64,000 bases of DNA from an uncultured Elusimicrobia bacterium (GCA_937916125.1 CALGGE010000066.1:27908-91907); one strand, 5' to 3'. Shown: positions 9,977 through 49,900, numbered from the stretch's first letter. Notes: generated from the letters alone by a model not told the origin. A program made the numbers and translations.

Positions 9977-12900
9977 TTATGCCGCGGATAATAATGATTT
10001 TATATATTGCGTTGAGACTTCGGCAGATTTTACGACAGATACTTTTTTGCCGTATGTATCCATTAATAATTCCGGAATTCCCGTAAAGTCTGCAATTGCC
10101 GACGGAGAAACTTTTGTTATTTTGTATTCGTTCTGTCTTAAAATATTGTCCAAGTCTCCGTTAAGTCTTATTTTTATGGAATCCAAAAATTCTTTCGCCG
10201 TCATTTCGCTTTCGATTTCTTTTGTTTTGTAAATATCTTCCATGGTATTGCCGTTTAAAATATTCTGTATTGTAAGAATAAGTATTGCCTGAACCGTATC
10301 GGTTTTAATATTTTTCATTAATTTGTTTTCATCAATATCTATAATATTTGCAATATTTTTTGCGACGGTATTCATTACAACACCGCGGATAAAACCTACC
10401 GTTTCCTCATATTTTTCTTTTGCCGTCAAATATTCAATGTATGTTCTTGCATCATCACTGAATAATGATAAATTTAACTTTAATATTTCTTCTCTTAAAT
10501 ATCCGTTACTGTTTCCAATATCAACGGACAATATACCGCTGTCAATTATTTGTTTTACATCTTTTGCCGTATAATCAAACTTACGGCTTAATGCAGCGTT
10601 TATCCCCTTTTTAAATTTTTGCTCGTTTGTTTCTGCTCGCCTGAATTTTGATTTATTTTTATTTATAAACATTTTAGTATTTTCATCTATTACGACACTT
10701 ACAAAACTTTCCATTCTTAAAATTCTTTCAAAATAGTCGTCGGATATTTGTCTTTCAATATTCTTCAGTTTGCTCATATCAAACTCTTTTTTACCGAATA
10801 GAATACCGTTTATATCATCAACTATCGGTATTATTCCGTATTCATCAAATATATCAACATTATATAATCCGTAATAAATTTCATTACTGAATTTTATCGA
10901 TATTTTAGTATCTATACCTTTAGCTAATTTTATCGTTTTCAGCTTTTCCAAAAGTTCCAATGCTTTTTCCTTTTCGGTAATATCTTCGGCAATAATTCTT
11001 GCTCCGTCAAACAAAACTTCGGAAAACTCATCACTTCTGTCATAAGAAATTATGAATTTATATCCTGCATCCTGCAGTCTTTGCAATTCACGGTTATACT
11101 TTTCCGCTTGAGCCTTGCTTATTATAAAAGTTTTTGTTTCTGAGGCAATTTCTTCATTTTTGCATACTGCAGAAATATCAGTTATATTTCTTTCGGAGAT
11201 ATCAAGCTTTATTTCTTTGCCCGGAACGGTAATCGAATTTGTTATTTCATTTTTTAATTTATTTTGTATCGAATACAAAGTTTGCTCTTCAAGGTCTGCA
11301 AATACGATTGCCGTTTCAAAAGAATCGTTTTTCCTTGTATCGTAGTAAGCAGCAGTAATTAAATCCTGCAATTGCCGCTTATCAATATCAATGCCTTTTT
11401 TTGAATATACCGTCAATTTCCCGTCAGATTTATCATATTTAACACGAATACCTTTTTCAACATCAAGTATAAACCCGCCTCTTACCGTCTGTGTGGGTTC
11501 CGTTATTATTTCCATATTGACTACGATAATATTTGTTTCTGCAACAGCCAAACTTTGCAGGTAGTCTTTTTGTTTATAATCTTCTGTTATAACTATATTT
11601 TTGTCGATAATTCCGAATATTCCCGACCTGTTTTTAAAAACAGCATCAAACAATTCGTTAATAAATAACATTTGTCCTGCGATTTCAGAAACAAATTGTG
11701 AAACCGTATAATATTGTAAATTAACCCGCTTGACCGTATCATAAGAAACGTCCTTAATTTTTGAAATCAGGTTAGGCATAATATTCGCTATAATCCCGGA
11801 AACATATTCCGAAAACTTGTTGTTTATCGACGGTTTTATTGTTGCAAAATAATTCCAAACAAAATGTGCTGTCGTTTCGGTAATAAATAATGCAAAAAGC
11901 GAACCGGTGCCTATCCCTATCCCTATACTTAATGCTCTTATCACCCAAATCACAGGCGTCATTTTTGTTTGTATCGATAAAGGAAAATTATGTGCATTAA
12001 TAAAATTCGGAGTCCAGAAAACAAAAGTTTCAAGTAATACGCCTATTGCCACGCCTAATTTTGTTGTTTTGAAAAATTTCCCCGAATTTTCTTTGTATAT
12101 GCTTTTTATTATTTTTGAATTGCCTATTTTGGTCAATAAATTTTGCGTTGAAGGAAGCATAAGCTGTGCATATTTATTATAATTTACATCAACATACATA
12201 CCGTTTTCTTCCATAATAGGGTATATTCTCCCCGTGGTTTTGTTATCATCGTCTTCTTCTATTACGGCTCGAATTGATTTTACCAATGAATGATTTAATT
12301 CGTCTATTTGATCATTTGTTATAAAAAGAGTATTGTTCGACAAATATCTCGGAGCATTGGCAACATCTTTAAGAGATAATTTTCCGTTCATTTGTTTTAA
12401 TTCTTCCGGAGTTTTGGAATCCAGAAGTTTTATCAATGAGTAAAACAGATTTGATACTTTTATTGTTTTATTATCCGAATCCATTGTTTTTGTATAAGCA
12501 TAAACCGTTTCTTTTCCCGCATCGGTAATTATTTGAGGGAAAACGTCTATTCCGATATTTATTAATTCTTTAATAACATTTTCCGCAAATTTATAAGAAT
12601 GGCAGCTTGAAAACATTAATGTTATATTTCTTAAATTAACACCGTTATCATGAGCATTTATCAATGCTTGTGATATTTGTTTTACGGTAAAACCTCTTCC
12701 GGACGAATAGAATATTTCGTCATCCAAACCGTGTCCGTCAAAAATAAACAAGCCTTTTTCCTGACCGTATTCATTAAAACGTTCTATTCTGTGAAGAAAC
12801 ATATTTGCTTCTACCATTGTCTCGGTTACATGCATTCTTTTTACATATCTGAGAAGTGTTTTTTTGGATAACGGTTGATCTTTTCTTCTGTTGATATAGT

Positions 12901-15900
12901 CAACAATATCCTTTTTTACAACTACGCTTCCTTTTTCTTTTTCAAGATATTCCAATAATTCCGGAACATTTATCTCGTCCGTGTATTTTGTGTTTATAAA
13001 ATCCAAAACTTTATCTGCGAAAGAAATTTCTATATATTCAAATAAATCGGGTTCTACATCGAGTTTTTTTAAAATTTCTTCTATTCCCACAGGCGTAAAT
13101 CTTTGTGTTTTACCGTCAGCATTCTTTTCGTTATTATGTATTGAAAATATTGCCATTTTATTTACGATAAGGTAAAGGTCGGCAATAATGGCATCTAATT
13201 TATTATAATATTCCAAAGTATCAGCAATTATACTTTCTATTTTGTACGTCGGTATCGAAAATATATTGTCTCCCGATATTGAATATATTCTTCTGGCTAC
13301 TCTTATTGCCAGCTGATATTGACGTGTAATATCTTTTATGTCGTTTTGCTTACAGTAGTCTTCCATAGCCTTACTGAAAAACACCGACATGGAAAAAGCT
13401 TTGTTTTCAAGATCCAAAGAATCTATCCTATATGTTTCCAAATCATCAACCAGATCTACAAATTTTTGAAAATCAAAAGTTCTGCCGTACCGTACATCAA
13501 AATCACTGAATAACAAATCAATTACATATCTGTTATAAAATTCAACATATCTGAAATTTTCCAATATATATCCGTTAACTTTTTTCCCTTTAAAACTTTC
13601 AATATATTCTTCGGCAACTTCGCTGTTTTCTTTTAAATCTGCACGAGTGATCAATTTCATTAAATAATTAAAGTCTTCCTGTGTATAATTGAAATTTTCG
13701 GCAAGTATTAAGATAAATTTTAATTTTAACGGACTAAAAGATATACTATAATCATGTTCGGATTTTTTATAAAAATCAAATATAAGATTTCTGATTGATG
13801 AATTTAAATTTAAGAAATCGGATATATTTTCTCTTGTTTTTAACTCCGCAATAAATCTGTATTCGCAATAATTATACAATTTATCAAAATCGCTTATTGT
13901 ATATCCGTTTTTCTTTACGATATCCAAAAGAACCTGAAGCATAATTGAACTTATGTCGTCGGAATAAGTATCAAGTGCATACTCGTAAAAATCCGTAAAG
14001 CGGTTGCGTGAAATTTTGTCCATATTAAAAAACATATATATATATTCTTCTTTTTCAAGAAGAGTAATAATTTTGCAATATATTTCTTTTTGGTCATAAT
14101 TTATATTTGTAAATTCTAAAAGAAGTTTGTTTAATAAAGTCGTTGACGTTATTTGGTTGTTTCTTATATAATCGATTATATTTCTGTTGAATCCTGATGC
14201 TCTTACAACTTTATTTTGTAAATCTTTTACGTTTGCTTCTACGGAGGCAGAGTCCGCTTGTTTTTCGAATTCAATTTTGTTTTCTTCGGATAAAGCTTCT
14301 TTTCGTTCCGCATCATCCGTCTCTTCAAGGAAACTTATTATTTTTTGTCCCCTCTCGAATATCTCGAACGAGTCAAATATTTTATATAAATCATCAAGCA
14401 TATCGGAAATAAGAAGTAATGATTGTTTTGCCGTTCCTTTCTGCAACAAATCTATTACTCTTTGCAAATTCTCTTTATTGCTTATCAAAGTTTGTAAGTT
14501 TTTGATTTCTGACACAAGCTCCGGCGTAACTTTCTGTTTATGAAGGTCATCTACCGTTGCCTTAACGACTTCCGTTATTGTTTCTCGAATATCCCCTATA
14601 TCGTCACTTTCCAATATCTTTGCCGCAGCCAAATCCGAAATAAGTTGTATTCTTTCTTCGTCGTCAAGTTCGTTTATTTTCTGTTTCTGTTGAGGATAGG
14701 TAAGCCTATCATTTATTATCTGTTGTGCCGAAGGAGATATTGAGGCAACGGCAGGTGCTATCATTTGGAAAGATATTTTACTCTGTTCTTTTGCTATTTG
14801 ATAATATGTCTTTTGTGCAACATCTATACCATCGGAAACATTAGGTGTTATTACGATATAACTTACACCCTTTTCTTTCAACATTTCCGTTACGGTATTT
14901 GAATGGAAGCCTCCCGTTACAACAATATCCAACTTTTTAACATTTTTCATATTGGCAATAATTTTATTTATATCATTATCAGCTTTAGTATCAAAATGAT
15001 TTTCGGCAGGTTTGTTATCGTCATTGAACAAATTTTTTGCAAAATATAAATTTCTGTCATTGTTTATCTTATAGAACTTATCGGTTTCATCCATATATTC
15101 GTCCAACATGCTCAATACTCTGTTATCGGCATATTTATTCCACAACCGTTTATAAGTTTCTATATTTTCTTTGTAATAATTATAATCATCGGAAGTTATT
15201 TTACCTGTTACATAATCCCGCAAATATTTTTCAAAATTCGTCATAAAAACGATATCTCTTTGAACTTTCGTCTCGGAGAATCTTGTATTTATCTCTTCGG
15301 TAAGCTTGGCTTCTTCGCTTATCAAATCCAACGGATTTATTTTTTGACTTAATTCTATGTATCTGAAATATTTATCAAGTTCCGAATATTTGCCGCTTAA
15401 ATCCAAATTTTCCTGTCTGCACAGTTTTATTATGTATGTGTAAAGTTTATCGACTCCGGAAAAATTATCGGTATTATCAATTAACTGTTTGTAGGTGTTA
15501 TAAGGAAGTATTTGTTTCAGAAAAAACAACAAACTTTGCATTTGTTCCGTTATTTTTGAAAAATTAAGCCTGCTCTGCATATTGAGCAACATTATGTACG
15601 CAAAAGTATTTTCGTATTTTGTTAAATCTATTCCTAACTTATCTATATGTTTTGACAGTAAAGTATAATATTTTTGCGGTGAGAGTTTATCTTCTTTGAA
15701 TTTTTTTGAAAGGTTTTCAAGTTTAAATTGTCTCTTTGTATAATGTTGTTTTTTTAATTTTTGAGAATCTTCTTCAATCGCTTTCAATATTAAATCTATT
15801 TTTTCCTGATTTTCTATTATTTTACCGAATCTTTTTAAATTTTCCAAATAGGGTTCTTTTTCTTCCAATCCGTTTATTATTTCTGTTTTTCCGCTTTTTG

Positions 15901-16339
15901 CACTGTAATACTCGGCTCCTGTTAATCTTCCCGTTTCAAGGATTGTATCTAAAAGTTCTTCTTTTTTAGGGTTTTGGTTTATTTTGTCTGTCAACCAATT
16001 TGTGCTTACTTTACCGTAGGCACCTTCCAAATATATTTTGTTTATGCCGAATTTATTATCAAATGTTTCTATAATATTGCTTATATTTTTTTGTACTTTC
16101 GGATGACAGTGCAAATCCTGAATATTTATTATTACTCTGTCCGTTCCGGCATAATGAGCTTTTGTTATTTGTCCGTAACCGTACGGCAAAACAAAGTCAT
16201 CAAATATTTTACTATACCGATTTACTATTTCTTTGTTTATAATAATACTTGCCGTTGAAGGCTGAATTACAAATGATATTAACAAACTTATCGTTACAAT
16301 TAAAGAAATAAGTTTCTTAAATCTCATTATAATTTTCAT
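9977..16339 (-). CDS. giant membrane-anchored multidomain protein, paralog P1 (ChaN/TraB-like N-module; clan-CD-like His/Cys dyad; hydrophobic CPBP-like block; LLSAA tail)
   Basis: Start placed at MKIIMRFKK (GGAG 8 nt upstream); the track ORF extends to 16381. Signal/anchor peptide LISLIVTISLLISFVIQPSTAS. Motifs: INIQDLHCH (16103-16129), YLEGA, VVTGGFH (14903-14923), FIFDGHG...43 aa...SSCHS (12596-12748). TM block 11840-12070. No database search was run. Confidence 0.8.
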   Translation of the reverse strand: MKIIMRFKKLISLIVTISLLISFVIQPSTASIIINKEIVNRYSKIFDDFVLPYGYGQITKAHYAGTDRVIINIQDLHCHPKVQKNISNIIETFDNKFGINKIYLEGAYGKVSTNWLTDKINQNPKKEELLDTILETGRLTGAEYYSAKSGKTEIINGLEEKEPYLENLKRFGKIIENQEKIDLILKAIEEDSQKLKKQHYTKRQFKLENLSKKFKEDKLSPQKYYTLLSKHIDKLGIDLTKYENTFAYIMLLNMQSRLNFSKITEQMQSLLFFLKQILPYNTYKQLIDNTDNFSGVDKLYTYIIKLCRQENLDLSGKYSELDKYFRYIELSQKINPLDLISEEAKLTEEINTRFSETKVQRDIVFMTNFEKYLRDYVTGKITSDDYNYYKENIETYKRLWNKYADNRVLSMLDEYMDETDKFYKINNDRNLYFAKNLFNDDNKPAENHFDTKADNDINKIIANMKNVKKLDIVVTGGFHSNTVTEMLKEKGVSYIVITPNVSDGIDVAQKTYYQIAKEQSKISFQMIAPAVASISPSAQQIINDRLTYPQQKQKINELDDEERIQLISDLAAAKILESDDIGDIRETITEVVKATVDDLHKQKVTPELVSEIKNLQTLISNKENLQRVIDLLQKGTAKQSLLLISDMLDDLYKIFDSFEIFERGQKIISFLEETDDAERKEALSEENKIEFEKQADSASVEANVKDLQNKVVRASGFNRNIIDYIRNNQITSTTLLNKLLLEFTNINYDQKEIYCKIITLLEKEEYIYMFFNMDKISRNRFTDFYEYALDTYSDDISSIMLQVLLDIVKKNGYTISDFDKLYNYCEYRFIAELKTRENISDFLNLNSSIRNLIFDFYKKSEHDYSISFSPLKLKFILILAENFNYTQEDFNYLMKLITRADLKENSEVAEEYIESFKGKKVNGYILENFRYVEFYNRYVIDLLFSDFDVRYGRTFDFQKFVDLVDDLETYRIDSLDLENKAFSMSVFFSKAMEDYCKQNDIKDITRQYQLAIRVARRIYSISGDNIFSIPTYKIESIIADTLEYYNKLDAIIADLYLIVNKMAIFSIHNNEKNADGKTQRFTPVGIEEILKKLDVEPDLFEYIEISFADKVLDFINTKYTDEINVPELLEYLEKEKGSVVVKKDIVDYINRRKDQPLSKKTLLRYVKRMHVTETMVEANMFLHRIERFNEYGQEKGLFIFDGHGLDDEIFYSSGRGFTVKQISQALINAHDNGVNLRNITLMFSSCHSYKFAENVIKELINIGIDVFPQIITDAGKETVYAYTKTMDSDNKTIKVSNLFYSLIKLLDSKTPEELKQMNGKLSLKDVANAPRYLSNNTLFITNDQIDELNHSLVKSIRAVIEEDDDNKTTGRIYPIMEENGMYVDVNYNKYAQLMLPSTQNLLTKIGNSKIIKSIYKENSGKFFKTTKLGVAIGVLLETFVFWTPNFINAHNFPLSIQTKMTPVIWVIRALSIGIGIGTGSLFALFITETTAHFVWNYFATIKPSINNKFSEYVSGIIANIMPNLISKIKDVSYDTVKRVNLQYYTVSQFVSEIAGQMLFINELFDAVFKNRSGIFGIIDKNIVITEDYKQKDYLQSLAVAETNIIVVNMEIITEPTQTVRGGFILDVEKGIRVKYDKSDGKLTVYSKKGIDIDKRQLQDLITAAYYDTRKNDSFETAIVFADLEEQTLYSIQNKLKNEITNSITVPGKEIKLDISERNITDISAVCKNEEIASETKTFIISKAQAEKYNRELQRLQDAGYKFIISYDRSDEFSEVLFDGARIIAEDITEKEKALELLEKLKTIKLAKGIDTKISIKFSNEIYYGLYNVDIFDEYGIIPIVDDINGILFGKKEFDMSKLKNIERQISDDYFERILRMESFVSVVIDENTKMFINKNKSKFRRAETNEQKFKKGINAALSRKFDYTAKDVKQIIDSGILSVDIGNSNGYLREEILKLNLSLFSDDARTYIEYLTAKEKYEETVGFIRGVVMNTVAKNIANIIDIDENKLMKNIKTDTVQAILILTIQNILNGNTMEDIYKTKEIESEMTAKEFLDSIKIRLNGDLDNILRQNEYKITKVSPSAIADFTGIPELLMDTYGKKVSVVKSAEVSTQYIKSLLSAA

Positions 16340-16373
16340 ATTTTCTTCTCCAATAAAAAAACTTGTATTGTTT

Positions 16374-16913
16374 TTACACAATACAAGCCCTTTCTATATG
16401 TTTTTTATTATAATTTATTGATATAGATCTCGGTAAAACATTGAATAATATTTTCATCAGTAATAATAAAAAAACACTTAATCGCAGAGGTATTTTCAGT
16501 GGATAACTTTTTAATTCAGGTATAAAATTTGTTGAATTTTTTATTTTATATACAACAAAAATCAAGATTAAATTTAACATAGTAATTGTTAAGTTTGCCG
16601 TGCCTATATACTCGTTTATCTTTACAAAATTTTTGTTGCTATCTTTATTTGCTTTTTTTGTTTGATGTTTATTTTGTGCGGTTTGTGGAAACATTGTGGA
16701 TAAGACATCGATTGTCATATTTATTGATGCAAAAAATTTCCCTGCAACAGAACCGCTTGCCGAAATATTTTTCTTTTTAAAACAAAAAGACAAAGAAAAA
16801 ATATTCAACACAAAAAACAACACAACAAAAAACGATAATATTTTGGTTTTATAACCTGTTTCCATACTTAAATTATAATCTACAAACCTGATATTTTCAA
16901 GAATTTCTTGCAA
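16374..16913 (-). CDS. small hypothetical membrane protein (3 predicted TM helices), immediately upstream of P1
   Basis: 179-aa ORF with hydrophobic helices ILSFFVVLFFVLNIFSLSFCF, LTITMLNLILIFVVY and LSVFLLLLMKILFNVL. It is co-oriented with P1, with the stop 35 nt before the P1 start. I recognise no family. Confidence 0.5.
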   Translation of the reverse strand: MQEILENIRFVDYNLSMETGYKTKILSFFVVLFFVLNIFSLSFCFKKKNISASGSVAGKFFASINMTIDVLSTMFPQTAQNKHQTKKANKDSNKNFVKINEYIGTANLTITMLNLILIFVVYKIKNSTNFIPELKSYPLKIPLRLSVFLLLLMKILFNVLPRSISINYNKKHIERACIV

Positions 16914-17567: not shown

Positions 17568-20500
17568 TACGGTAAAGACTATGAGGCGGATAATATTTTT
17601 CTGATATTTTCGGTTATATTATCCCCGAAAATATAATCTGCAATTCTTAATATACCGGGATCAATTGCAGGACGTACGGGTTCAATTTCTTCCTTCTTAC
17701 AAGCTTTCATAAGCCCTGCGAGTAAAAGTCTTGCCTTATAAACGGTATCTTGTCTGTTATCCATATATCCTAAAGCATCTTTTGACAATATTGAAAAAGC
17801 TTCTTTAAACACCATTGAATCAGAATACAAACTGCCCGCCTTTACCTGAGAAGAATATAAATTTAAAATATTATTCCGTTTAGGACCTTGTTCATACTCG
17901 ATAAATTCATCCGGTTGTAAAGAAAAAACATCTTCAATATTCATTTTTTCCTTAAATAAAGATACGTGTGCCAACATTCCGTAAAAAATTTTCTGTCTCA
18001 TATCTGCTGCCTGCTGAGTATCTCTACTGACATACGGATTAACTACAAATTTAAAAACTTTGCCGAAATCACCCTGCTTGTATTTTCTTACAATATTTGC
18101 CTCGTATATTCCAAATAAAAAGCTGCTGCTTACGGAAATTCTTGTTTGTTTGGATTCCACAAAATAATCAAACAGATAAGAAAAATGTTCTTTCACATAA
18201 CTGCTTGCCGTAGTATCACTTTCGTTTCTTAATATCCTTGCTATTTCTTCCTCTTCCTGTTGAGATAAATTAACTTCCTGACGGGTTCCGTACTCATAAG
18301 CAAACCTCATTCTCTCTTTCATTCCTTTGGTTTCTTTAAACAATCTCATAAGATCCGATACGGCCTGTATTATATTGGAATTTTCTTTTGTATCTTCTTT
18401 TAATCGCTGTGCATATAACATATTTACCGGGATTATAAGTTTACCTATAGAATCACTGTTTATCACTTTCTGAAGAATTTCCTCAAGTCTCTCATCTATT
18501 ATATGATCCAAATAGACATCTTCCCCTTTTTCTGCAAGCAGAGCCAAACTTCCGGGATAACTGCCCTTAAGCAAAATACTATCTCTCTTGTTTGATAAAA
18601 ATACCAATCTTGTTTCATATTCCTGCTGGTCCTTATAAATTGAAATTTCATAATTCACATCGTTCATCTCCGACAAATCATATTTCCCTTCCATAAGAAG
18701 TTCTTCTTTACTTGATAAAGTTCTTGTAATTTTCAAATCATCAAAAAAATCTTTAAATTCATTCCAAACTTTATCGGCAACCTGAACAGAGATTTCAATA
18801 TCCGGAAGTTCATTTCTTATATTCTCAAAATCGTTTAAAACGGATTTAATATCTTCAATTGAACAATTTGCCAAGTCAAGTTTTATTCCGTCAACACCTA
18901 TATCATTTACGTCAACACTGATCGTTCTTACAAAAGTTTTAAAAAACTCGTCGAAAAATCTGAAAGTATATTCAAGCACCATTTTTTTACCGTTCTTATG
19001 TAAATTACCTGAAAGTTTGGTTAAATTTTCTTTTACCGTAGTTTCTCTGTTTAAAACACGAACATTTAAATTATTGTCTCTGATAACAACTGTTATAAAA
19101 TCTATATCACTGCCATTTAATATTTCAATAAATTCATTTTCTTCAAGTTCATTATTAAAAATATGTTCATCTGAAGCTATTTTTACACCTACATAAGAAG
19201 ATTTTTGCTCGAAAAATTCGCCGAAGAAAGATTTTCTCTTCAAAGCTTTAACGGCTTTTACATTTTCTGCAACCGCTCTCATATCTTCGGCAACATGAGG
19301 ATATTTCAAATCTTTTCTTCCTATTCTTGCAATAATATCTTCTATATTTACTACGGTATCGTATCCCATAACTTCCATTTCTTTTTCGTTTTCGGAATTT
19401 TTGCTTAAAACTACAGGTATATAAGTTTTGCCAAGAACCGACAGTGTCTGCCTTGCAGGTATTTGCGGAAACCCGTTAAAAGAAATAATACTGTTCTCTT
19501 CCTGTACTAAAAATTGCTTTGCATATTCCAACAAAACATCCTGCCAAATTAAACGTGTATCGGAAATTCCGACCAATATAATGATACCGTTATTATTTTT
19601 TAAAACATATACGGGTATTTTAACACCGTTCTTTTCCAAAATTGTCGGGTTACCATAAACTTCCTCTTCCAAAACGGAATTCTTAACGGGAACTATCGTT
19701 AAAGATAAAAAACCGAGTTTTACTTTAGCGTTAACGGCTTCTCTGATTCTTGCAATATCCAAAGTATCTGCTACATCCGACTCAATGGCAATCCAATTTC
19801 CTTTTTCAAATTTTGAGACCGTAGTATTAAAAAAACTTCTCACATTTGAATACAACTCTATAAAAACTCTCTTTAAATTGTCGTATATATACGTAACTTT
19901 ACCTTTTTTTATTGAAGGATTCTGAAGAAGTTTTTCCTCAACATTTAAATTTTGCATTTCTTCTCCTTCGTAAACATAAATTACATTTTCCTGCCATGGG
20001 AAACCTGCTTGAGTAAGCATTCTGTCAAAACTTTCCTTTCCATAATTATATGTAGCCATTAACGTTTCCAAATATGCCTGTTCGTTATGACCTCTGTTTC
20101 CCTCCGGGTACATTACTATCGTCAAACCGTCAATTTTTAAAACTTCTATTTTTTCAACATCTTTTGCCGTTGATCTTTTATACCAAACATCAAATATTTT
20201 ATCATCTTTTAAATCGCCGTAGATAATATCGGAAAATTTATCGGCAATAGAATCATCCTGAAAATAAACAGCAAGCTCTTTCAGCAAATATCCGGGCATA
20301 AATACAATAGAATCTTTACCGGACTTTGAATATTCCAATGCCTTATCCATAAAAGCTTTAAATTCTTCATTGGCTAAAATTTGCTCTTCCGGATGACTAT
20401 CATAATTACTTAATTTTTTATAGGTATATTTAACGGATTCCACGGGCCATATAAAAACAAATGTTTTATTTTCAAAATTCGGGAAAAAAGTCGTCAAAAC

Positions 20501-22110
20501 ATCTTTCAACCAATTGCGTTCTTTATAAGGGTATCTTATAATCGTTCCGTCAGATCTCATATAGTTGTGTTTATTCTGTCTGTTTACGGAAAACTTGGAC
20601 GGGAACAATCCGTAAAAAGGAATATCCGTATATAAAAATGTTGCAGATGTCATAATATCCGTAAACAAACTTTGAGACTCTTCCGACATAAAAAATGCGG
20701 AATCCTGTTCATCCAGCAGGGACATATCCAAGCATACATTTCGGTTCAACAATCCGTTACTTTCAAGAAACTCTTTAAAAGCTTTTGCATTTATTTCTTT
20801 ATTGGAAATAAAACTCTTAAATTTTGATATATCAGCATAAAAAACATTATTGCTATTGTAAATAAGTTCCGAACGTTCCTCAATTTTTTCAACATCAGAC
20901 CACTTTGTATATTTACCGTAAAAAACAATAACGGGATAAGTGTTGTCCCGGTTCCAATCTCTTTCAGAAGCCAAGAAAATTTTTCCTTTATTCAGTACGG
21001 ACACAAGTTCGTTTTTTTTCTTATCTGCAGAAGAAAAATCGGTTTTTAGAACTTTATATATTTTAATTATACCGTTTTCTCTTACAACTTCAAAGTCTCC
21101 CTCTGCCTGAATATCAATATCAAGCTCACCGATATCCGTCATATCAATATCTTTAACCGTAACGGATGTTTTATCGGAACAATTTATTTTAAAAATACTG
21201 CCATCAGGTATATAAACATTATTCAATGTTATTGTACCGTGCAGAGAAACTTCGGCATTTTGTTCGATGACGGTATCAACAAATACAACCTTTTCCAAAT
21301 CAGTATCTTTCGTATCGGCACCGTTATTTACCAGACCTTTCTTTTTTACTTCTTTAGTGTAAGCAGCTCCCCCGCCCGGAACGGCACCGACAACAAACAT
21401 CATCGGAAGCATTAAAACCATCTTCGTAAACAGCGACAAATTTCTATGTAAACGTTTTATTCTTCCCGGCTTTTGGGAACCCGTACTATTATCGACAAAT
21501 TCTTCTTCCCGTAAATTTGTTATTTCGTTTCTGTTATTGATTTCCTTTACGGTATTTTTCGACACATAAAACAGACGTTCTTTATTCTCAGACAAGAACG
21601 TCAACAAAAATCCTTTTTCGACAACTTCAATATTTTTCAGAACGGTATCATCGTCTAAACCTTTGGCATTAAAAATATCGGAAATATATTTTTGAACGAC
21701 AGACACATTTTCTTGTACCGTTTCAATATTCTTGTAACGGTTAAAAAGTTCACTGAGCAAATCATAATCCAAAAAGCCGACTGCTATAACCTTTGTAGGA
21801 TCATCCCAACTTTCGTTCATCAAAGAACTTCTTATAAATTTCTGATACGTATTGTTCAATATTGAAAGCTGTCTCATATAATCTTCATAAAATTTACTCT
21901 TACTTTCAATAACATCAACAGATTTTACGTTAGGCATAATAACGGCATAATTGATATCAAGTCCGTCCATAAGTTGTTTCATTCCGCGACTGTGATATCC
22001 TCCGGTTATTATGATATCTACAGGCTGATCCGTAGTTTTTAATATTTCTTCAAAAGACATTCTGTTATTATTTTTTATAACGGCTCTGTTTGCCGATTCT
22101 TCTTTATTTA

Positions 22111-22117
22111 TTTTTTT
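22111..22117 (-). other. A AAA AAA slippery heptamer followed by a 0-frame TAA, at the junction of P2 fragments B and C
   Basis: The minus strand reads CGG TTT ATA ATA AAA AAA TAA. The -1 frame continues ATA AAT AAA GAA GAA TCG ... directly into the 1,493-aa ORF. Confidence 0.7.
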
Positions 22118-22838
22118 ATTATAAACCGTCTCAAGAATATCAAATTCTTTTCCGTTAAAGTTTGTGAGAAAGATGAATATAAATCGGTTAAAATGATTTG
22201 TTCTTCATTTAACAATTGTACTAAATCAATATCATTCTTATTTTGCAAATAATCACAAAATATATAAAAATTTTTATATTTTTTACCGTAATTTTCATCA
22301 GAAGAATTATCATCCAAATATTTTTTTATTTCTTTATAGTATTGTAACGGATAATTCTTATTCAACTCTTTTATTTTTGAGTATTTATGATATGTCATTT
22401 TGTCAGCAAGAACGATGTTTATATCAAACAACTCTTTTTTAACTTTATTAAAGTTCAAATCTTTATAATATTTTTCCAAATCCAAATACTTTCTTATTGT
22501 CTTATATTTAAATAACGGAATATTTCTCTTTTTAGAAAGAGAAACAAGATATGAAAAATATTTAGACTGTGAAATGTACCCTTTCTTATAGCAATCAACA
22601 AGTTCGTCGAGACTTTTGACTGCAAAGCTGCAGACAAATGTTTTGGCATCATTTAAAACAGACGATATATCGAAAATTTTATTTTCAAGTAAAATTCTGT
22701 TTTCATATATTTTTGACAATATAATAAAATTTTCTTTATAAATATTTTCTTCTTCCAATCCCTTAAAATTTATTTTTTCGTTTTTATTAAAAATTCCGAA
22801 ATATTCCGCACCTGTTATTTTACCGTCAGTAAGCATTT

Positions 22839-22902
22839 TGTAAATAATATTGTTTCTGATTTTTTCATCTTGTAAATAATATTGTTTCTGACTTTTTCAT
22901 CT
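22839..22902 (-). repeat. 32-bp tandem duplication that frameshifts P2
   Basis: Plus strand: TGTAAATAATATTGTTTCTGATTTTTTCATCT (22839-22870) and TGTAAATAATATTGTTTCTGACTTTTTCATCT (22871-22902), with 1 mismatch. Removing either copy joins ...DEKVRNNIIYK to MLTDGKITGAEYFG in frame. Confidence 0.9.
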
Positions 22903-23286
22903 TTTACGGCTTTAAGCCAGTTGAAATCCAAATCTTTTACGGCACCCTCAAGATATATATTTTCAACATTATAATTTTTTGTCAAAAAATCCAAAATTAC
23001 GGCAATATTTTCCTGAGTATTTTTATCGGAGTGCAAATCCTGTATATTAATCAACGTTTTTTCGGCACCTATATATACATCATCAATAACCTTACCTAAG
23101 TCGGCGGGGATAAAATAATCCGCATTATCAACACTTACGGAAGTAATATTTACGGGTGCAATAACCGATGCACAAATATCACAACATATATAATTAACAA
23201 TACAAACCGTTAGAATACATGAAATCAGTTTTTTGTAATTATACATATTTTCTCCGTGCTGCAAAATATATAAAAATTTTACTGTT

Positions 23287-26200
23287 TTATGCTGCGGAAA
23301 GAATATTTTTAATATTATCAATATATCCGTCGGACTGACCGAAGCTCGATGTATCAAATTCTTTTATTGTTACAGGCAATAAGCCTATTTCTCCGCTCTT
23401 AAAATTAAATATACCGCCGTTTAATTTAGCCAACACCGTGCGATCTTTGTTTATTCTGTTGACAAGTATATTTTCCAATACACCGAAACCTAATAATTCT
23501 TCATATTCGGAAGGAATAATAAACCTTGCACTTTTTTGTTCTCTTGTTTCCAAATATACGGGTATGGACTGCGTATCATTAAGAGGGTTGGGAAGATGAA
23601 TAAAAGCCTGTTGTTGCGAATCCGCATTCCCCGCACTTAATGATATTTCATATTTAGTGTCATGTTGGACCGTAATAACATTTTCTTCCGAAACATCCTC
23701 TTCATTAACTGCATTTGTGGTAACAGGTCTTCTTTGAAGAATAAAAAGTTTACCGTCTTTAAATCCGAATTCAACATCAACGGCATAAAAAACATCGTCT
23801 TCCAATAATAACAGAACTTTAATAAGTTGTTTTATTTCTTCATAATTTAAAGTTCTTTCTTTTGCACCTTTATCCACAAAAGTTAATTTTACGCCTTCCC
23901 GTGTTGAAACTATTTTATAATCTTTGGTTGCAACGGAGTACTCCAATACATTCCCTGTTTCCATATTTACGGTTATTGTATCGGGAGTAAGTTTTCCCGA
24001 AACTATACCCTCTCCCAGTCCGTAAAGAGTTTCTATTGTGGTATTCCCGTATTTGTCTCTGCTGAAAGCAACTCCCGACTTATCAACATCTATCATAGTC
24101 TGTACCAACACCGCAGGAGAAACGATTTGTCCGCTGTTTATCATATATTTTATGCTTCTTTCTGAATAAAAGGATTCCCAACAGCTCAGCAAGGCATCAA
24201 AGAGATTTCCTCTGTCAACATTCAATACTGTTTCCCCCATACCGGCAAAAGCATTGTTTGCACTGTCTTCTCCGACACCGGAAGAACGTACGGAATATTT
24301 TGAATCTCCCAACGTTTTTAAAACCATATCTTCCAGTTCTTTCCTTAAAGAATCGGTTTCCTTAATTTTATTTTTGGAGTTTTCAATAAGGGAGATTATA
24401 ATTTTTGCGAAATTTTGAGCTAACTGATATTCTCCGTTATTTATCGCATTTTTAAAAGATTGTGAAAGCATTAAAAATTGTTGTTTCTGTCCGAGCATAT
24501 CAAAGAACCTCACAAAAACATCATAACTTATGCCTACACCTTCGGGAACAACTACATTATCTTCTTTTTCCAACAATCTGTGTATTTTTGCCAGTTCAAC
24601 GGTTTTAGAACCGAATTTATAAGAATCCCGTTCATATATATCATCAAAGCTCAGGATATCTCCTTTCGGACTATATACTCCGTAATTATAAGTACCGTAG
24701 AGTCTTAATTTTAACAGGTTTATAACATTTTCCGTATCGGTTTTTAATTCCTGCAAATAAGCATCTTCTTCAGTTTCCGGTATAAACATTTCATTCACAT
24801 TTGCCAATTGCAACATACCGACAATCTCATTTAAATCTTCCGGCAAATATTCATATTTTTCCAGCATAGTTCTGCATTCTTTTAAAAATACTTTCAAAAA
24901 TACAATTAAACTCTCTTTCGTATTTTGTGAAATTTCAAAAACTTCTTTTCTAATCATATCCAATTCTTGTCTGTATTCCGGAGATTTTATAAACTCCAAT
25001 TTCTCAAGCAAAGTCCTTACTATGGAATAGGCTATATTAGGATTGGCGGTTGTTTCCAAATTAGTTACGGCTTCATTCATAACTTTTACTTTATCCTGAA
25101 TATAACTTTCGTTCAGTTCTTTAATTTTATCTTTTATGGTTTGCGGCATATCCTGAGCAAAAAGCATATCCAAAGTTTGTGCCATTCGCGTATCACCGAT
25201 AGTTTGAAAATATATATATTCAACAATTCTTCCTATATTTTCAGCAACCGAATTTTTTATTAAGAAATCTTTTATATTTTCGGCGTCATCTTTTTCTATA
25301 TATGACTGTAAAAGTTTTAATGTCGAATCTTCTATATCGTCAAAAAGAAGTATATGTCCGGTTTCTCCGTTTAATAAAATAATAGAACCTTCACGTAAAA
25401 TTTTATCTTTGCTTTTGACTTTTCTTATACTTAAATTACCCAATTGAAAAGGATTTCCCGAAGAATAATAACATAAAATATTCAAACCCTTATCTTTCCA
25501 ACTTGCACCGTTAATAATAACCGACGGAGTATGATATTCCCTTGTAGTAATTGCGGCATGGCTTAAAACTCCTCCGCTTGTGGTTATTATTGCTTTTGCG
25601 GTTTTAATTCTTTCTACATCGTCGGGCGTAGTATAAGGTGCTACAAAAATGCTGTTTCCGTCAACATTATTCTTGTCAAACGTTACATATCCGGAGACAT
25701 ACGTACCGTTGCCTGCAGATATAGGTACGGCTCTGAGTTCCGGAGAGGAAAGGTTCTGTGTTTGTCTGTGAAGAAGATTGCTTATTCTATCCTGTTCCGA
25801 CGGACTTAACAGTTCCTGCCGAGGAATATCAAAACCTTCGTTACGTAAAATTTCGTAAAGTTCTTCAAATGTAACGGATTTTCTTCCCGAAAGAGAAACA
25901 TATTCCACAACGGAATATTTTAACCTTTTTATGGATGGTTTCGTAAGTCCTTTTACCGATAAAAAATCGCCGTTTTGCAGTTTCATATAACCGCTTACCG
26001 CCAATAAATCACCTATGTAACCGATAGTTTTGAATTTAAAGTTTGTATTCGGAATAAGGTTTATCAATTTACTTTTATTTATAGCGGCTTCTTCATCATC
26101 GGAAACGGCTTCCGCCAAATAAGAAACAACGTCATAATCTTTGTTTCTGCTCAATATACCGTTCTCATTCAAAAAAATTCTTCCTACGGCAAAACTTCTT

Positions 26201-29200
26201 TCTATAACATTATTGAACATATCATCCAACACATTTTGGGTTACTCTGAATCCAAACTCTTCAGGTATATCGTCGATCAAATCCAAAGATTGCAATACTT
26301 GTTTTAACCAATTCTTATCAAGGGAATTTCTTTGCGGACGAGCGGTAATTTTGTTTTCCGGCCATCCCGTAACCCCGTTCGGCATATATCCGTACCAAAT
26401 ATCTCCTTCCATAAATTTTTCAACCAAACTGTCAAAAGTTCTCCTGTAAGAATCCTCGCTGTATCTGTTGGACAATTCATCCAAATCCCAATCAAGCATA
26501 ACGGAATAACTGAACAAAGATACAACTTTAGTTGCAATATCTATAAAATCCATATCTTTATTAAATCCGTAATCCGTACTTAAAGTTGCTTTTAAACTGT
26601 ATGCGGCATCATTGCCCGCAGGTCGATTTATATCATTTTCCACAAAGAAACCGAATTTTTCCAATATCGTCGAGAAATATCTTATTCTTTCGGCGTTTCC
26701 GGTTTTCTTATCGCTTTCATGATAAGAGATGGTTATGGTTTTATCGGTATCAGCAAAATTCATAAATATATCAACACTGTGTGCAAACAATCTTGTCGTC
26801 CATACCAACAAATTATCCATACAAATAAAATCATCTATCTGATATTCATGTTTCTCTGCGGTTTTTTGTCGCGGGAGCTTATTTTGGGATAATCTTCCAA
26901 TAAAATCAAGTATATCCGGATTTAATTTATTTTCCGACAAATCATAAAGTTCCACTCCCGTTCTATCCAAACCGCCGGTATCCGAATATCCGATTGAAAT
27001 ACGAGGATTTCGATGAACGGCAACAACCGTTTTTATTGCTTTATCGCCTATTTCTATAATATCCTTTACTGTCTCTTTGAAATCCGAGATCGACGTTTGA
27101 TGAACCGCATTTATAAGAGTATGTATTTCGGTTATTTCCTCTATATGTTCGCTGTTCCATTGTTTTAAAGCCATATTCCGTTTTATCATATCTTTTGTCA
27201 AACTTGTCGTAAATAAAAGTTCTCCGTCCTGTTCCGGACGTATCGACAAATTATATAAAATATTGTTCAATGCGGTACGTGCATAATTCCCGTGTTCGGG
27301 ATTTATTAAGCTTAAAGATACTATCATTTTAGATAAAATTTTTACAAGTTCCGCAAAATCTTTTTCGGGATTTTTCGATGCAGACAAACCGTCAAGCAAA
27401 GATAAAACAAGATTGTTGTCATTAAGTATCGACTGCAAAGTATTGAATTTATCTCTTATTATCGCAACTTCTTTATTTTGTTTATTCGTAGTTCCGCTTA
27501 CGGTATAAAGTATGGGCGGTTCCTGCAAAATTATATTACCTGAAGTAAACATATCTTTAGGCAAATATTTTATGAGACGGGAAAATCTGTATTGTCCTCT
27601 CATCTCCGAAACAAACGCATCGGATACCGGCTTCAAAAAATAAGGAAGGTTGTTTTCCTCACATAATTCATTAAGCCTGTTTATGTCAAACAGATTATAA
27701 TTCTGCAAAGAAATATACAGCTCGGTCGAAGCCATATTAACAAGTTCGGATATAACATATCTTCTTGTTTTGTTATCAATATTTTTATTTTCCAAAATTA
27801 ACAACAATTTTTTTATTACGGATATTGCCAATACACGTCCGTTTTCTTTTTTACCGAGCAAATCATTACAAAACGACGATAAATCAAATAAAGTACAGTT
27901 ATCGACAACAATTTCCGCAAGGTCTTCGACATCGGATATAAGACTGTCTTTTTCAGGTAGCGGAATGCTCACATTCTTAATATTTGCTTTATAAACCGCA
28001 TCAACAAATCTTTGAAGCGTTTTCCTATTTAATCCCGGACCGTATATTGTACTCGTATCGTCATTCCAAGAATTTCTCTTGGCAGGATCTTCAACACCCG
28101 TATTTGCAAACATATAAGAATAAACAGAAATGTTTTTGGGATTTTTTTTCGAAAGTTTTTCAAACACATTATAGAACGTTTTTTCTCTTGATACGTATTC
28201 CAGAGAATTTTCATCCAAAGTATTTTGAGCAATCGGAGTATACACGACAAGGAGAAGCCGTTCCGTTATACCATTGCAAATATAGGTGCCGAAATCTTTA
28301 ATATCATTATCTTCCGAATTATAAAATTTACCGGAAATATCCATCATACCGTCAAGCAATCCGTAGAATTTTTCATTGTCGGAATTAACATCATACGAGT
28401 CAAACAGTATTTTAATCAAACTGTCCAACATCGTTTTTACGGTTCTTGTTCCGGTTTTCTTTTTTACTTTTGTAAAATCAAAAATAAACGGCAAAAAATA
28501 AGTTATACTATCTTCTTTTTGTTCCTCTTGTTTCAATATTATTTTCAACAACTCTTCCAACAATGTTTCCAGAAGGATACTGTTGCCGTCGTTAATTTTT
28601 TCAGCCAATTCTTCCATATTTGATAAAATTTCGGATACTCTTTCTCTATCCTGTTCCGCCGTAAAAGGTAATGCCTTTTCTCTGAAAACTCTGACATTAT
28701 TCGAAAGACTTTCGGAAAGAGATTTATCGACTTCTTTACCATCGGAAACGGCAAAATAATATTGTTTTAATGCATCATAATCTTTCAAATTATTTTGAAT
28801 TTGATACGGAATATCTTCATCTTTGGAAATAAATTCTCTGCTCAACAATTTATTTATTCCGTAAGGAATAAAATCCGAATTAATTTTATATGTTTCTCCG
28901 ATAAATTTGGAAACGTCGGCTAAGACAATATATTTGTCTCTTAATTTTCCTTTATGTATAAACAGAGAATCAACCATATGATAGAAAAAAGAATTGTTTG
29001 ATTTGTAAACATCTTCAAGTGCTATGAAAGGAATTAAAGAAAAAAGTAAAAAATCACTCATGTAAAAACTGCCCCAATTATCTATACCGTTCTGCTCGCA
29101 AAAAACTTTAAGCTTTCCGTAAACGGTAGAAACATCATTATAGTCGCCGTCTCTGAAATAATATTGGGGTTGATAATTGTGTCTGTTATTTTCTTTTACC

Positions 29201-45829: not shown

Positions 45830-45852
45830 AGAGATCCTTTTGCTGAAGAGAA

Positions 45853-46760: not shown

Positions 46761-46780
46761 ATCAAATTTAACAATGCAAT

Positions 46781-46930: not shown

Positions 46931-46966
46931 TTTACATTTCACAACAAACCTTTTAACTTTTCAACT

Positions 46967-46985: not shown

Positions 46986-49900
46986 TTACGCCGATGCTGC
47001 AATTGCATGTATGTTCGAAAGCTTCATCAACGCCGTAGGCATACGATCTCTTGCTGCTCCTCTTCCGTCCGCCAACAACGCTCCCAAATCTTTCATAAAG
47101 TCTTCTTTTACATACGATATCTTCTCGGTTACCGCTTTCTGCAGTTTAACTACATCTATCTCAAATGTCTCGTCTTCGTATTCTTTCTTGCCTACAACGC
47201 TGTCTTTTATCGCCGTCGTTACTACATTCTGATTGACTGCCTTGCTTATTACAAGTTTGCTCATTATGTCTTCCGGTCTTGTGCTTGCACTGTCTAACAA
47301 CGCAATCATTCCGTTATCTTTATTCGCCATTATCAACATATCTCTTACTACCGATAATATCTCTATCGATGCCTGTATATCGCTGCCGCTCACATCTTCC
47401 ATCGCTAATATTTCGCCCGCTCTCTGCGTGTATGCTTGTACTATATCCTGAACATTCCCATTCTTTACTTCCTCTATATTATTGAACCCTATCGCCTGTG
47501 CCATCTCGTTTGAGGTCCCGTATATCGCAAGAACCGCTGCTACCGTATCTTTTATCTCCTGAGGTTTGGTTACTCCGTTTACTACCGTACTCAATATCTC
47601 TCTTACAGCCTTATTCGATTTACCTTTTACTTCTTTCCTGTCTGTTCCCAATGCTTCACAAACTGCATTTATTGAAGATGTTATAGGTGCTAATCCTTTG
47701 TTCCTTGCTGATGTTTCAGGTACCATCACTATCCCCTCAAATCCCATCGCTTTAAATTCTTCCGGTGTTACGGATACCGTCCTGATATCAAATGTTCCGG
47801 ATTCTTTATCAAGTTCGCTGTATGATATCGCGTCTTTACTTATACTTTCTATATTTACAACGTGGTCCGTTCCAAGCAATCCTATCATTCCTTTCTTCGG
47901 AACTTTTACTTCCGTTATCTCTTCCGCATATACGGCTTTGGCTCTCGGCATTACGCTACCGAGTTCCTGTAACAAATCTCCTATCGTTACATCTATTACG
48001 GAACTTGTTCCCGCTACTTTCAGCTCTTCTATTGCCGTCGTGTAATCACTACCAGCAATATCTGTTACGGAAGAATCTATTCTTGCCGCAATAAAGTCTG
48101 CTATAGCATCGGTATTAAAGCCCATCGACGCCATTACAACTACCGCACAGTTGGATACTGCCGCCTCTATCGTTTCATTGTCTATACTGCCTTTTACTCT
48201 ATCGCTGACTTTTGTCGCTATCTCCGTATACGGATTTACTGTCTCGGAAACTTCTGCCTTCTCCGCTTCCTGCCGTGCAGGCTGAACCGCCGGCTGTTTC
48301 TTGCCTATCGCAAAACCTTTCGTTTCTACTTTTCTCGTCTCTCTGTTGAACGTTAATCCAAACGTTATATCGTTACCGTCGGATGCCTTGGTAAGTGCCG
48401 CTTCTACCTGTTTATTCGCTTCCTCAAAGTTCGTTACAAGTTTCTGCAATTGTCCTTGTGCAGCAAACATTTCTCTGAATTTTATCCTGTCGCCAAACGT
48501 TATCTTTTCGCCTTTATTCGATTTCGCTACCAAATCATTATATGCCGCTTTCTTCTCTTCGCTCATTCCATCATATATCGCAGATATCTTGCCTTCCTGT
48601 TTGGAATAGTTATCGTTTATGTCTCTTACCGCTTTTATCAATTTATTTACGCTTACTTTAGGACTCTGTTCCTGTATCAGTTCAAGCCCTGCAAGAACGT
48701 CTCCGCTAAACACTCTCTGCACTCTTTCGTCACTTGTATCCGTTACCGCACCTGCTTTAAATTCATTACATGCTGCAACATATTTCATATAACTGTCATA
48801 CGCAAACCATGTATCTCTTGCCATCTGTTTCGTTTCGTCAGTCGCACTGTCTCTGTTTATCTCAAGTATCTTATTCATTACTCTGTCCGTCGCTTCTTCT
48901 CCTATCATTGTAGCCATCAATCCTCTCGCTTCCGCGTAAGTAGGTGCTATTATCTCCATCGCTCTCTGTTTCTGCGACCAGACTTTCTTTTCATTTACTA
49001 CCGCATTATTTGCTTTCTGTAATGTCGCCTCTTCATTGGATTCCATTACATCATTCAAATTGCTCAATATCATTCCAACACTGTATCCGTCATTCTTCTT
49101 TGCTGCTTCTCTTAATATCTTGTTCTCTCTTACCGAATCTACCGATGTTATCTGTACTATATCTCTGTTGAAGAATTCCGAACTGAATCTTGATTTTCCA
49201 TCTCTGTGGGCAAATCTTCCATTTCCCTGCTCTGACTGCGTTGCATCCATCTTCTCAAAGTTTACTTTCCACATCGTCGCCTGTACTTTCGCTTCCCCTT
49301 CTATACCCTGTTTCGCTTTCAAGTTGTTTACTGCTCCGCCCATATCGCCCGGGTTCCATCCTCTTCCAAGCAAGCTCACATCTCCTACTATAAACGATAC
49401 TTCTCCCTTCTTCATTACATTCTTTAATACTTCCTGCAACACTTTCGTCTTCGTATCTATATCTATTTCCCCGAGTTTATCTACACTGTAATCGGATACC
49501 CCGTTTGCTGCCATAACTTCCGCTACCTGTGCATACTGATATCTCTTTCTATCCGAAAGTTTCGTCAACTCTCTGTCAAGTAAGTCTAACGACAAACTTA
49601 CTATGTCTTCGGATGATATTCCGTTCTTCTCCAATCCCTCTACCAACTGTGTCGTTACATCAAAGTTGGCCGTCATTATCAAATCTACTCCCGCAGTCCC
49701 CTGTCTGTTCAACTTCTGTCTGGATGTCGCTATTACTTCCGCTATATCTCCCTGTGTCTGTGTTAATGCCGTCGTTACTCCTACCTTCATACTGTCGGGC
49801 ATACTACCGCCTATCTCCTCATAATCCAAATCTTTTAACATTGTCCTTATTGATGCACTGAATGTCCCTGAGAAGCCTACCGACCAATCAAATGCCGCTA

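Follow-up and report, generated by a model that had tools for sequence, protein, structure and literature searches.

A stretch of 64,000 nucleotides from an uncultured Elusimicrobia bacterium (GCA_937916125.1 CALGGE010000066.1:27908-91907), referred to here as the window, encodes four giant proteins that finish in a common short peptide, and this C-terminal tail is the subject of the present report. The G+C content of the window is approximately 33%, all of its genes bar one lie on one strand (the minus strand), and its ordinary chromosomal genes include the trp operon and those for HydE, Obg, BirA, MscL and a two-component system. Translation identified the four largest open reading frames (ORFs), named P1, P2, P3 and G, all of them on the minus strand:

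9977-16381, minus strand: P1 ORF, C-terminus ...STQYIKSLLSAA, then stop
17579-22060, minus strand: P2 ORF, C-terminus ...ITENIRKILSAS, then stop
23287-32379, minus strand: P3 ORF, C-terminus ...YIDNIKNILSAA, then stop
46986-63674, minus strand: G ORF, C-terminus ...KLSNIHAIAASA, then stop

The shared tail was first noticed in an initial annotation made from the sequence of the window alone; translation confirmed its presence at the reported positions in all four ORFs, and it was found to extend to approximately 115 relatives in two protein families. With residues numbered backwards from the C-terminal residue (-1), the last eight are IKSLLSAA in P1, IRKILSAS in P2, IKNILSAA in P3 and IHAIAASA in G, the last being a variant with A at -4 in place of a near-invariant L. 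The tails were scored with a position matrix of nine residues, trained on database homologues without the window's own copy of P1:

9977..10006, minus strand: P1 tail, YIKSLLSAA and stop, 15.4 bits
17579..17608, minus strand: P2 tail, NIRKILSAS and stop, 19.2 bits
23287..23316, minus strand: P3 tail, NIKNILSAA and stop, 24.5 bits
46986..47015, minus strand: G tail, NIHAIAASA and stop, 10.2 bits

The match among the four is far more than chance would produce. The ordinary proteins of the window, as had been claimed, do not end in this way; the best of their ORFs scored -5.6 bits, against 10.2-24.5 bits for the giants.

Three of the four gene models required correction, that of G being treated with its family below. 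Translation of P1 most likely begins at the ATG at 16339, and a public protein, P0001 (2120 aa), is 100% identical to it. Searches with the N-terminal domain of the family (tblastn/blastp) showed that P2 corresponds to the 3' region of a paralogue of P1 and P3 that has been split; the N-domain missing from it, of which the first ~385 residues are accounted for, lies upstream in two other frames, at ~22124-22837 and 22915-23253, and an identical call of 1493 aa for P2 exists in a public record (P0185). P2 is either a pseudogene or split gene, or else the product of frameshift errors in the assembly.

Conservation of the tail among relatives

A database search with P1 returned 177 relatives, and the tails were read from the 120 that were listed. 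The motif is terminal in approximately 80 of these, and nearly all of the remainder are marked as partial or lie at contig edges. Among 72 tails of the P1/P3 family, position -8 is I or V in 60, -7 is K or R in 62, -5 is I, L, M or V in all 72 and -4 is L in 71; position -3 is variable (S, A, G, R or E), while -2 is A in 67 and S in 5, and -1 is A in 68 and S in 4. An alignment of 26 C-terminal domains contains only three invariant columns (L217, A219 and A220), each of them within the tail. The orthologues of P3 (P0095, P0111, P0116 and P0117) end in NLLASA, NLLASA, EMLSAA and QMLTSA, respectively, and those of P2 in SILAAS, DLLASA and SILSKA. In the family of G, every representative that aligns to the end of the query finishes ...LMKLSDI[HRK]A[VI]A[AS][AS]A; a basic residue at -7, A or S at -2 and A at -1 are each found in 37 of 37 members, Ala occupies -4 in 27 of the 37, and more distant members end in ...KLIRGAA. 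The tail is therefore kept in orthologues, and also in paralogues, of all four giants. Considering the two families together, the motif stands directly before the stop codon in all of the approximately 117 tailed sequences.

That this likeness might stem from the nucleic acid, as a terminator or another conserved element in DNA or RNA, was ruled out by two observations: the codons of the tail vary synonymously (six codons for Leu, four for Ala, and both TCN and AGY for Ser), and the 3' flanks of the tailed genes are unrelated to each other. Selection must therefore act on the peptide itself. On the strength of these alignments, the consensus [IV]-[KRH]-x-[ILVM]-[LA]-x-[AS]-A-COOH is a clade-specific C-terminal short linear motif, held in common by two otherwise unrelated families of giant Elusimicrobiota proteins, which are anchored in the membrane and combine several enzymes.

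Specificity for giant proteins

A census of 1077 ORFs was taken over 1.24 Mb of Elusimicrobiota DNA, comprising 79 related loci and the window; ORFs of fewer than 900 aa (n = 974) were regarded as ordinary. A regular expression for the tail matched 14 of the 21 ORFs of at least 1500 aa, as opposed to none of the 187 between 300 and 1000 aa (0/30 at 600-1000 aa and 0/157 at 300-600 aa); the intermediate class of 1000-1500 aa provided 3 matches in 15, and the smallest (70-300 aa) a single one in 854. The enrichment of the tail in very large proteins is thus pronounced (Fisher p = 1.7e-26). The long ORFs that do not carry it are RpoB, RpoC, AddAB-like proteins, outer-membrane-like proteins ending in F, and giants that are truncated or split.

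Scores obtained with the position matrix were bimodal. All values of 10 bits or more came from giants or from their 3' fragments, the next-highest being 0.3 (a family member ending in LLACA) and then -1.9. Following redundancy reduction of the training set, G scored 10.6 bits, a level attained by a fraction of 4e-5 of internal 9-mers, compared with a maximum of 1.2 across the 974 ordinary C-termini. With a matrix built from the P1/P3 family, 23 of 31 unique tails of the G family exceeded the maximum of the 974 ordinary C-termini. Within the interiors of the giants the motif is rare, with 9 matches per 412,886 positions. Neither outcome that the initial annotation had named as telling against its reading was seen: ordinary proteins lack the tail, and orthologues of all four giants keep it.

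Independence from upstream domains and predicted structure

The regions preceding the tail had been described as not obviously alignable between P3, G and P1/P2, and this too was upheld, as was the conservation of the tail regardless of domain context. The last 300 aa of 86 tailed proteins fell into at least 16 BLAST clusters, and when profiles were compared (hhalign), only the final 26-45 columns could be aligned for most pairs of P1/P3-family subgroups, with the alignment always anchored at the end. Between the P1/P3 and G families, the alignment was confined to the terminal 14 profile columns, in exact register. In some of the P1/P3-family subgroups the similarity does reach further, over a common C-terminal domain 120-140 residues long (hhalign c1-c3 83%, c3-c5 95%).

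A model of the last 220 residues of P1 (AlphaFold) predicts an all-helical domain with a predicted local distance difference test score (pLDDT) of ~95 up to approximately residue 200, a linker (residues 201-209, pLDDT ~50) and then a short terminal helix (residues 210-219, pLDDT ~64). A fold search of the PDB with the helical domain found no match (best E = 1.0). The hydrophobic residues at -8, -5, -4 and -1 would fall on one face of a helix, which has a basic residue at -7. As modelled, this anatomy fits an exposed short linear motif tethered on a flexible linker, as opposed to a buried element. Scans with Pfam and NCBIfam, both of the complete giants and of their last 70-80 residues alone (E up to 10), found no model that covers the tail, and searches of the literature on Elusimicrobia giants, on C-terminal motifs and on Ruminimicrobium brought up no account of the tail or of either protein family.

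These data bear on the simplest alternative, that the tail is no signal at all and represents the end of an ancestral C-terminal structural element, passed down within each family and needed for folding alone, with the likeness between families reflecting convergence on a helix-capping sequence or chance. The C-terminal domain shared by some of the P1/P3 subgroups would be expected of such an element, and the G-family tail does deviate at -4 and -3. However, other subgroups align over their last 26-45 columns only and the G family over 14, the invariant columns are limited to the terminal L, A and A, the tail of low pLDDT is set apart from the domain by a linker, and the cross-family matrix scores lie far above background. 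This alternative is considered very improbable.

The P1/P3 family

P1 and P3 have in common an N-terminal region of ~560-590 aa (27% identity, E 7e-65) located behind a signal-peptide-like segment, and the split P2 also possesses it. The features recognized in these three genes are as follows:

9977..16339, minus strand: P1, 2120 aa; N-terminal signal-like segment, N-domain, m1 module, C-terminal helical domain and tail
14660-16339, minus strand: P1 N-domain, the family N-domain
11789-12104, minus strand: P1 m1 membrane module, residues 1426-1531 of the 2134-aa ORF
9980-10639, minus strand: P1 C-terminal helical domain (AlphaFold)
17579..23253, minus strand: P2 split gene; main ORF 17579-22060 and N-domain fragments in other frames
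23287..32379, minus strand: P3, 3030 aa (Pfam and NCBIfam)
30700-32379, minus strand: P3 N-domain, the family N-domain
29476-29874, minus strand: P3 Rce1-like/CPBP intramembrane protease domain, residues 836-968 (PF02517)
25360-25659, minus strand: P3 PEP-utilizers mobile domain (Pfam/NCBIfam)
23692-24615, minus strand: P3 PPDK_N ATP-grasp domain, residues 2589-2896

The 177 relatives of P1 share essentially the N-domain alone, which covers 25-30% of the query, and their named sources are all Elusimicrobiota (Endomicrobium, Endomicrobiaceae, Endomicrobiales and the rumen 'Ruminimicrobium'). When prokaryotes were scanned with one genome for each species, 316 relatives were found, the best 79 loci of which are all from Elusimicrobiota, often with several per genome; the giants occur in multi-copy tandem arrays, with up to at least six loci per genome. 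Their interiors are diverse. PPDK/PEP-utilizers domains, phosphomannomutase with PGI, PGK, adenylate and cytidylate kinase, APH-type kinase, HATPase, HD/HD-GYP, metallophosphatase, NUDIX, UDPGP and trehalase domains were all recognized among them. Within P3 itself, residues 2241-2896 (window 23692-25659) present a PEP-utilizers mobile domain ahead of a PPDK_N ATP-grasp domain in a giant membrane protein, an order opposite to that of PEP synthase and rifampin phosphotransferase.

The N-domain had no sequence match in Pfam, NCBIfam or the PDB, a profile search of the latter included, beyond scattered Pfam noise. Its AlphaFold model (pLDDT 82.8) has an alpha/beta core that a long helical insertion interrupts, and its invariant residues include Q74, D75, H77, E105, G106, G476, G477 and H479. 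The best fold match in the PDB, the erythromycin esterase EreC, was non-significant (E 0.42); as modelled, the domain hints at a hydrolase of the EreA/Tiki/TraB type.

Two kinds of membrane module were recognized in the interiors. The CPBP domain of P3, when scanned alone, scored 25.7 bits with PF02517 against a cut-off of 22.4, and comparison of 14 such domains shows little or no variation in the CPBP motifs EExxxR, FxxxH and HxxxN. Of 80 complete members of the P1/P3 family, 13 carry this domain, in one or two copies each. The m1 module (consensus ...ETFxFWxPNFVxxH...VVWxIRALSIGxG...HxxYN) occurs in 27 of the 80, including P1, with up to three repeats per protein, and retains E, H, H and N. 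With a probability of 38% over only 19 columns (hhalign), m1 could, on sequence grounds, be a divergent CPBP-like module. Neither module is found in 42 of the 80 complete members or in any member of the G family.

The presence of these modules raises the question of a CaaX-like box that acts without prenylation, whereby the CPBP domains that P3 and some other giants carry would, in cis or on other giants in trans, bind the terminal tetrapeptide (L-x-A-A or A-A-S-A) or clip it after -4. Enzymes of the Rce1 type are defined by their recognition of a C-terminal tetrapeptide. As with CaaX ends, the terminal tetrapeptide of the giants has a fixed -4 followed by small or aliphatic residues, the invariant -4, -2 and -1 map onto C-a-a-X, and an Rce1-like domain (PF02517) is found in P3, above the cut-off, and in 12 other complete members. 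Unlike CaaX ends, the tails have no Cys at -4 (Leu in 71/72 and Ala in 27/37 of the two families) and there is no evidence for prenylation; bacterial CPBP proteins are not known to process CaaX ends, and their substrates bear no relation to CaaX. Moreover, the protease domain is missing from most of the tailed giants and from the G family, the majority of complete members having neither module, the relation of m1 to CPBP is weak, and the conservation at -8, -7 and -5 would be left unexplained. Such a box is regarded as unlikely. Also unlikely is a bolder reading, with the tail as the address label of a hitherto unknown, phylum-specific system for handling giant multi-enzyme proteins tethered to the membrane. 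In its extreme form, the CPBP domains of some giants would read or clip the L-x-A-A end, as a prenylation-independent bacterial counterpart of CaaX processing, joining the P1-P3 array and G into one machine and marking as complete only those giants that had been fully translated.

The G family

The reading frame of G contains no in-frame stop from its first ATG (63674) to the end of the window, and G thus exceeds 5670 aa and runs off the window. Its features are:

46986..64000, minus strand: G, >5670 aa; Gly/Ala-rich membrane region, P-loop and tail
residues ~1690-1785, minus strand: Gly/Ala-rich hydrophobic membrane region of G (hydropathy)
55446-55559, minus strand: DEAD/DExH-like P-loop of G (PF00270)

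A value of 5562 aa is a minimum length for G, the frame (46986-64000, minus strand) being open at the window edge. An orthologue of G at the related locus L080 is split into parts of 2152 and 3515 aa by a run of N bases (a scaffold gap, XXX in translation). The segment 48001-52000 of the window, inside the C-terminal part of G, has a G+C content of 0.42 compared with ~0.33 elsewhere, with a GC skew of -0.37 and an AT skew of -0.30.

An exhaustive phmmer search with the last 1200 aa of G identified 52 representatives, the named ones all being Elusimicrobiota, and full-length relatives range from 5092 to 7173 aa; P0141 (5092 aa), apparently complete, has a signal-anchor at its start. The possibility that G is a very long member of the P1/P3 family was rejected, as the P1/P3 N-domain is absent from all 52 representatives, the complete 5092-aa protein included, and from L080. 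Judged by this domain content, G is a member of a second, architecturally distinct family of giants. Both families were seen only in Elusimicrobiota and in the same genomes.

The sole domain match in G is PF00270 (E 4.7e-8), with a Walker A motif GVGFGKT and a DEVH box located C-terminal to the hydrophobic region. G had earlier been called SecA-like; this was not sustained at sequence level, as only the generic DEAD/DExH P-loop model matched, with no SecA family model and no PDB match by phmmer. The accompanying suggestion of a context-independent signal that links P1-P3 with G was supported; the confinement of both families to the Elusimicrobiota and their co-occurrence in genomes fit a functional link between them. 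The layout of the G family, with a huge repetitive N-terminal part, a membrane anchor and a helicase-like nucleoside triphosphatase (NTPase), resembles that of the Omnitrophota giants (Archaeovorin, dockerin-type; bioRxiv 10.1101/2023.11.21.568195), a likeness established for the layout alone; those giants belong to another phylum, and no C-terminal tail is mentioned in the passages of that preprint that were searched. By eye only, stretches resembling papain/C39-type peptidases were noted in some G-family relatives, in the C-terminal parts of P0122 and P0123 and at the N-termini of P0147 and P0131 (...GHAVAVTEISDGKVTVID...). Modules of this peptidase type have been described in Omnitrophota giants.

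Cellular location and neighbouring genes

The N-termini of P1, P3 and P0141 resemble Sec signal peptides or anchors, and the giants have internal hydrophobic modules. Hydropathy analysis detected no hydrophobic segment in at least the last 100 residues of P1, P2, P3 and G. In P3 there is none past approximately residue 1121, and its PPDK_N ATP-grasp domain ends 134 residues from the C-terminus; in G, the P-loop NTPase and all that comes after it lie beyond the membrane region; relatives of P1 and P3 carry other ATP-dependent or nucleotide enzymes (PGK, ADK, APH, HATPase and PPDK). Because the ATP-using domains adjoin the tail with no intervening membrane segment, the tail is most likely in the cytoplasm, a placement drawn from simple hydropathy and the assumption that the ATP domains work in the producing cell.

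Directly upstream of P1 lies a gene for a small membrane protein:

16374..16913, minus strand: small two-transmembrane protein, 160-200 aa, motif ...PLKIP...NVLPRS[IV]S

At least 14 related loci (e.g., L001 8587-9081 and L012 9434-9955) have a small membrane gene with the NVLPRS[IV]S motif immediately upstream of a giant. A Pfam scan of its product found no match. Its identification as TIGR04420, 'SRP-less Sec system protein', was rejected as noise (E 0.008, cut-off 90 bits), and a literature search did not find this term. One subgroup of giants (L026 1588-9863, L031, L035, L037, L040 and L041) has a conserved upstream module encoding a tetratricopeptide repeat (TPR) protein, an outer-membrane-like protein with a terminal F (700-1000 aa), a membrane protein (130-260 aa), a secreted protein with RHS repeats (450-600 aa) and the small membrane protein. 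Elsewhere in the window, a tRNA-Thr gene (45853-45925) overlaps the mechanical TTG start of a histidine-kinase ORF (44204-45910), and hence the true start of the histidine-kinase gene is further downstream.

The neighbourhood and the predicted structure together provide the case for a non-degradative docking peptide, in which the tethered C-terminal helix would plug, with its carboxylate, into the groove of a shared partner and the giants would be joined into one complex. Candidate partners are the small upstream membrane protein, the periplasm-facing N-domain of another subunit, or a further hub. Docking is consistent with the periodicity of -8, -5, -4 and -1, with a basic residue at -7 that hardly varies and with a helix placed at the end of a flexible linker, and also with the multi-copy tandem arrays, the conserved small membrane gene directly upstream (window 16374-16913 included) and the presence of both families in the same genomes. 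The arrangement of a folded domain, flexible linker and conserved terminal peptide is also that of the C-terminal tip of SSB (DDDIPF-COOH) and the C-terminal peptide of FtsZ, each of which recruits partners and is read with its carboxylate or as a short helix, although the sequence of the tail is unrelated to either. Conversely, the N-domain would probably be across the membrane from the tail, behind its signal-peptide-like N-terminus, and is missing from the G family, and position -4 differs between the families (L versus A). Docking is seen as possible, if doubtful.

An export or translocation signal read in the cytoplasm is a further alternative; it would be of the type I secretion system (T1SS) kind and remain uncleaved, or serve as a 'completion certificate' by which full-length giants alone would pass to a dedicated machinery for export or insertion, which might include the NTPase of G. 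The giant bacterial proteins secreted by T1SSs use C-terminal signals, some of which require an exact motif at the extreme C-terminus, and they provide a precedent. Like the RTX giants LapA and MARTX, with an uncleaved signal in the last residues, the proteins described here are giant and modular, with conserved ends and variable enzymatic middles, and the outer-membrane-like, RHS-repeat secreted and TPR proteins encoded upstream at some loci are also suggestive. For the Omnitrophota giants, in which a membrane anchor is followed by helicase domains, self-secretion has been proposed (bioRxiv 10.1101/2023.11.21.568195), which adds a parallel. Unlike T1SS substrates, the proteins of the present families have signal-like N-termini, membrane segments and internal membrane/CPBP modules that favour integral membrane proteins, and their payload is of cytoplasmic-type metabolic enzymes; RTX repeats were not found, and no genes for ABC transporters, membrane fusion proteins, TolC or other outer-membrane proteins are near them in the window. 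The T1SS analogy drawn in the initial annotation consequently fits poorly. Its analogy with the type IX secretion system (T9SS) fails, as neither TIGR04183 nor a Pfam C-terminal domain (CTD) of the Por sorting type matched the last 70-80 aa (E up to 10) and the C-terminal 220 aa of P1 are all-helical in the model. Sortase, exosortase and rhombosortase signals differ as well; the C-termini of the giants have no transmembrane helix with a basic cluster, and no NCBIfam sorting-signal model matched. Overall, a role in export is judged improbable.

Proposed recognition of the tail

Collectively, the tail looks like an undescribed recognition tag. It is very probable that it functions as a C-terminal tag of some kind that is recognized in trans: its strict location at the extreme C-terminus argues that recognition includes the free carboxylate, and its retention across unrelated contexts argues for a common trans-acting reader. 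One trans-acting factor, common to both families, would thereby read the tail through the free carboxy terminus. That the tail is cytoplasmic and exposed, that it is recognized in trans and which factor reads it are inferences.

Among the candidate readers, an AAA+ unfoldase/protease of the ClpXP or FtsH type is tentatively ranked first, by analogy. ClpX recognizes C-terminal LAA or xAA degrons (those of ssrA, of RseA and LexA fragments, and of CtrA) as well as the Ala-tails added by RqcH. The tail would likewise act in the manner of an ssrA tag or Ala-tail degron; the unfoldase would be engaged by the carboxylate and the small residues at the end (A-A or S-A), the family-specific residues from -14 to -5 might serve as an adaptor or masking determinant, and giants that are misassembled or unwanted would be extracted and degraded starting at the C-terminus. 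In common with the ssrA tag, the C-M1 class of ClpX degrons and the RqcH Ala-tails, the tail is short, portable and at the extreme C-terminus, with Ala-Ala and a free carboxylate preceded by hydrophobic residues. A related Endomicrobia metagenome-assembled genome has a transfer-messenger RNA (tmRNA) gene (L040 3017-3408, minus strand; Rfam 169 bits), the tag of which ends in ...GFGAMPIAA (ARAGORN), this tag being unusually long with a start that may be mis-set; its end, MPIAA, resembles that of the giants. The ssrA analogy is the best of those that had been offered, but a partial one, as L lies at -4 and not at -3. Unlike the ssrA and RqcH tags, the tail of the giants is genetically encoded on complete proteins.

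A number of points nevertheless weigh against a degron. The invariant L is at -4 and not at -3 as in the ssrA and C-M1 degrons, -3 itself being variable, and the tail is no copy of LAA. Conservation with helical periodicity (-8, -5, -4 and -1), together with the basic -7, reaches -8 and beyond, which would be needless for a minimal ClpX degron and points to a helix that docks. Unless it were masked, a degron acting constitutively on proteins of such size (2000-7000 aa) would carry a very high cost. The A-A ends are not measurably depleted among ordinary ORFs, with 3 observed and 4.3 expected, a comparison of low power, and no protease or adaptor gene is linked to the giant loci examined. Finally, the topology is derived from crude hydropathy, and in some members the count of membrane segments may be even.

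Significance

The tail marks, with near-perfect specificity, the largest proteins (2,000-7,000 aa) of the barely studied Elusimicrobiota/Endomicrobia, bacteria of the rumen, the termite gut and groundwater. The giants that carry it have no described function, and fuse a novel exported N-domain with intramembrane-protease-like modules and cytoplasmic sugar-phosphate, nucleotide and kinase enzymes. Portable C-terminal tags, including ssrA, CaaX, PTS1, KDEL and the sorting signals, have in each case given access to a part of cell biology. The nine-residue matrix provides a handle with which all members can be found, and the tail peptide could be used in pull-downs or as a reporter tag for stability and localization. 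If the tail proved to be a degron, it would reveal the way in which cells keep control of proteins that are very expensive to make; a role in docking or processing would instead establish a new system of assembly.

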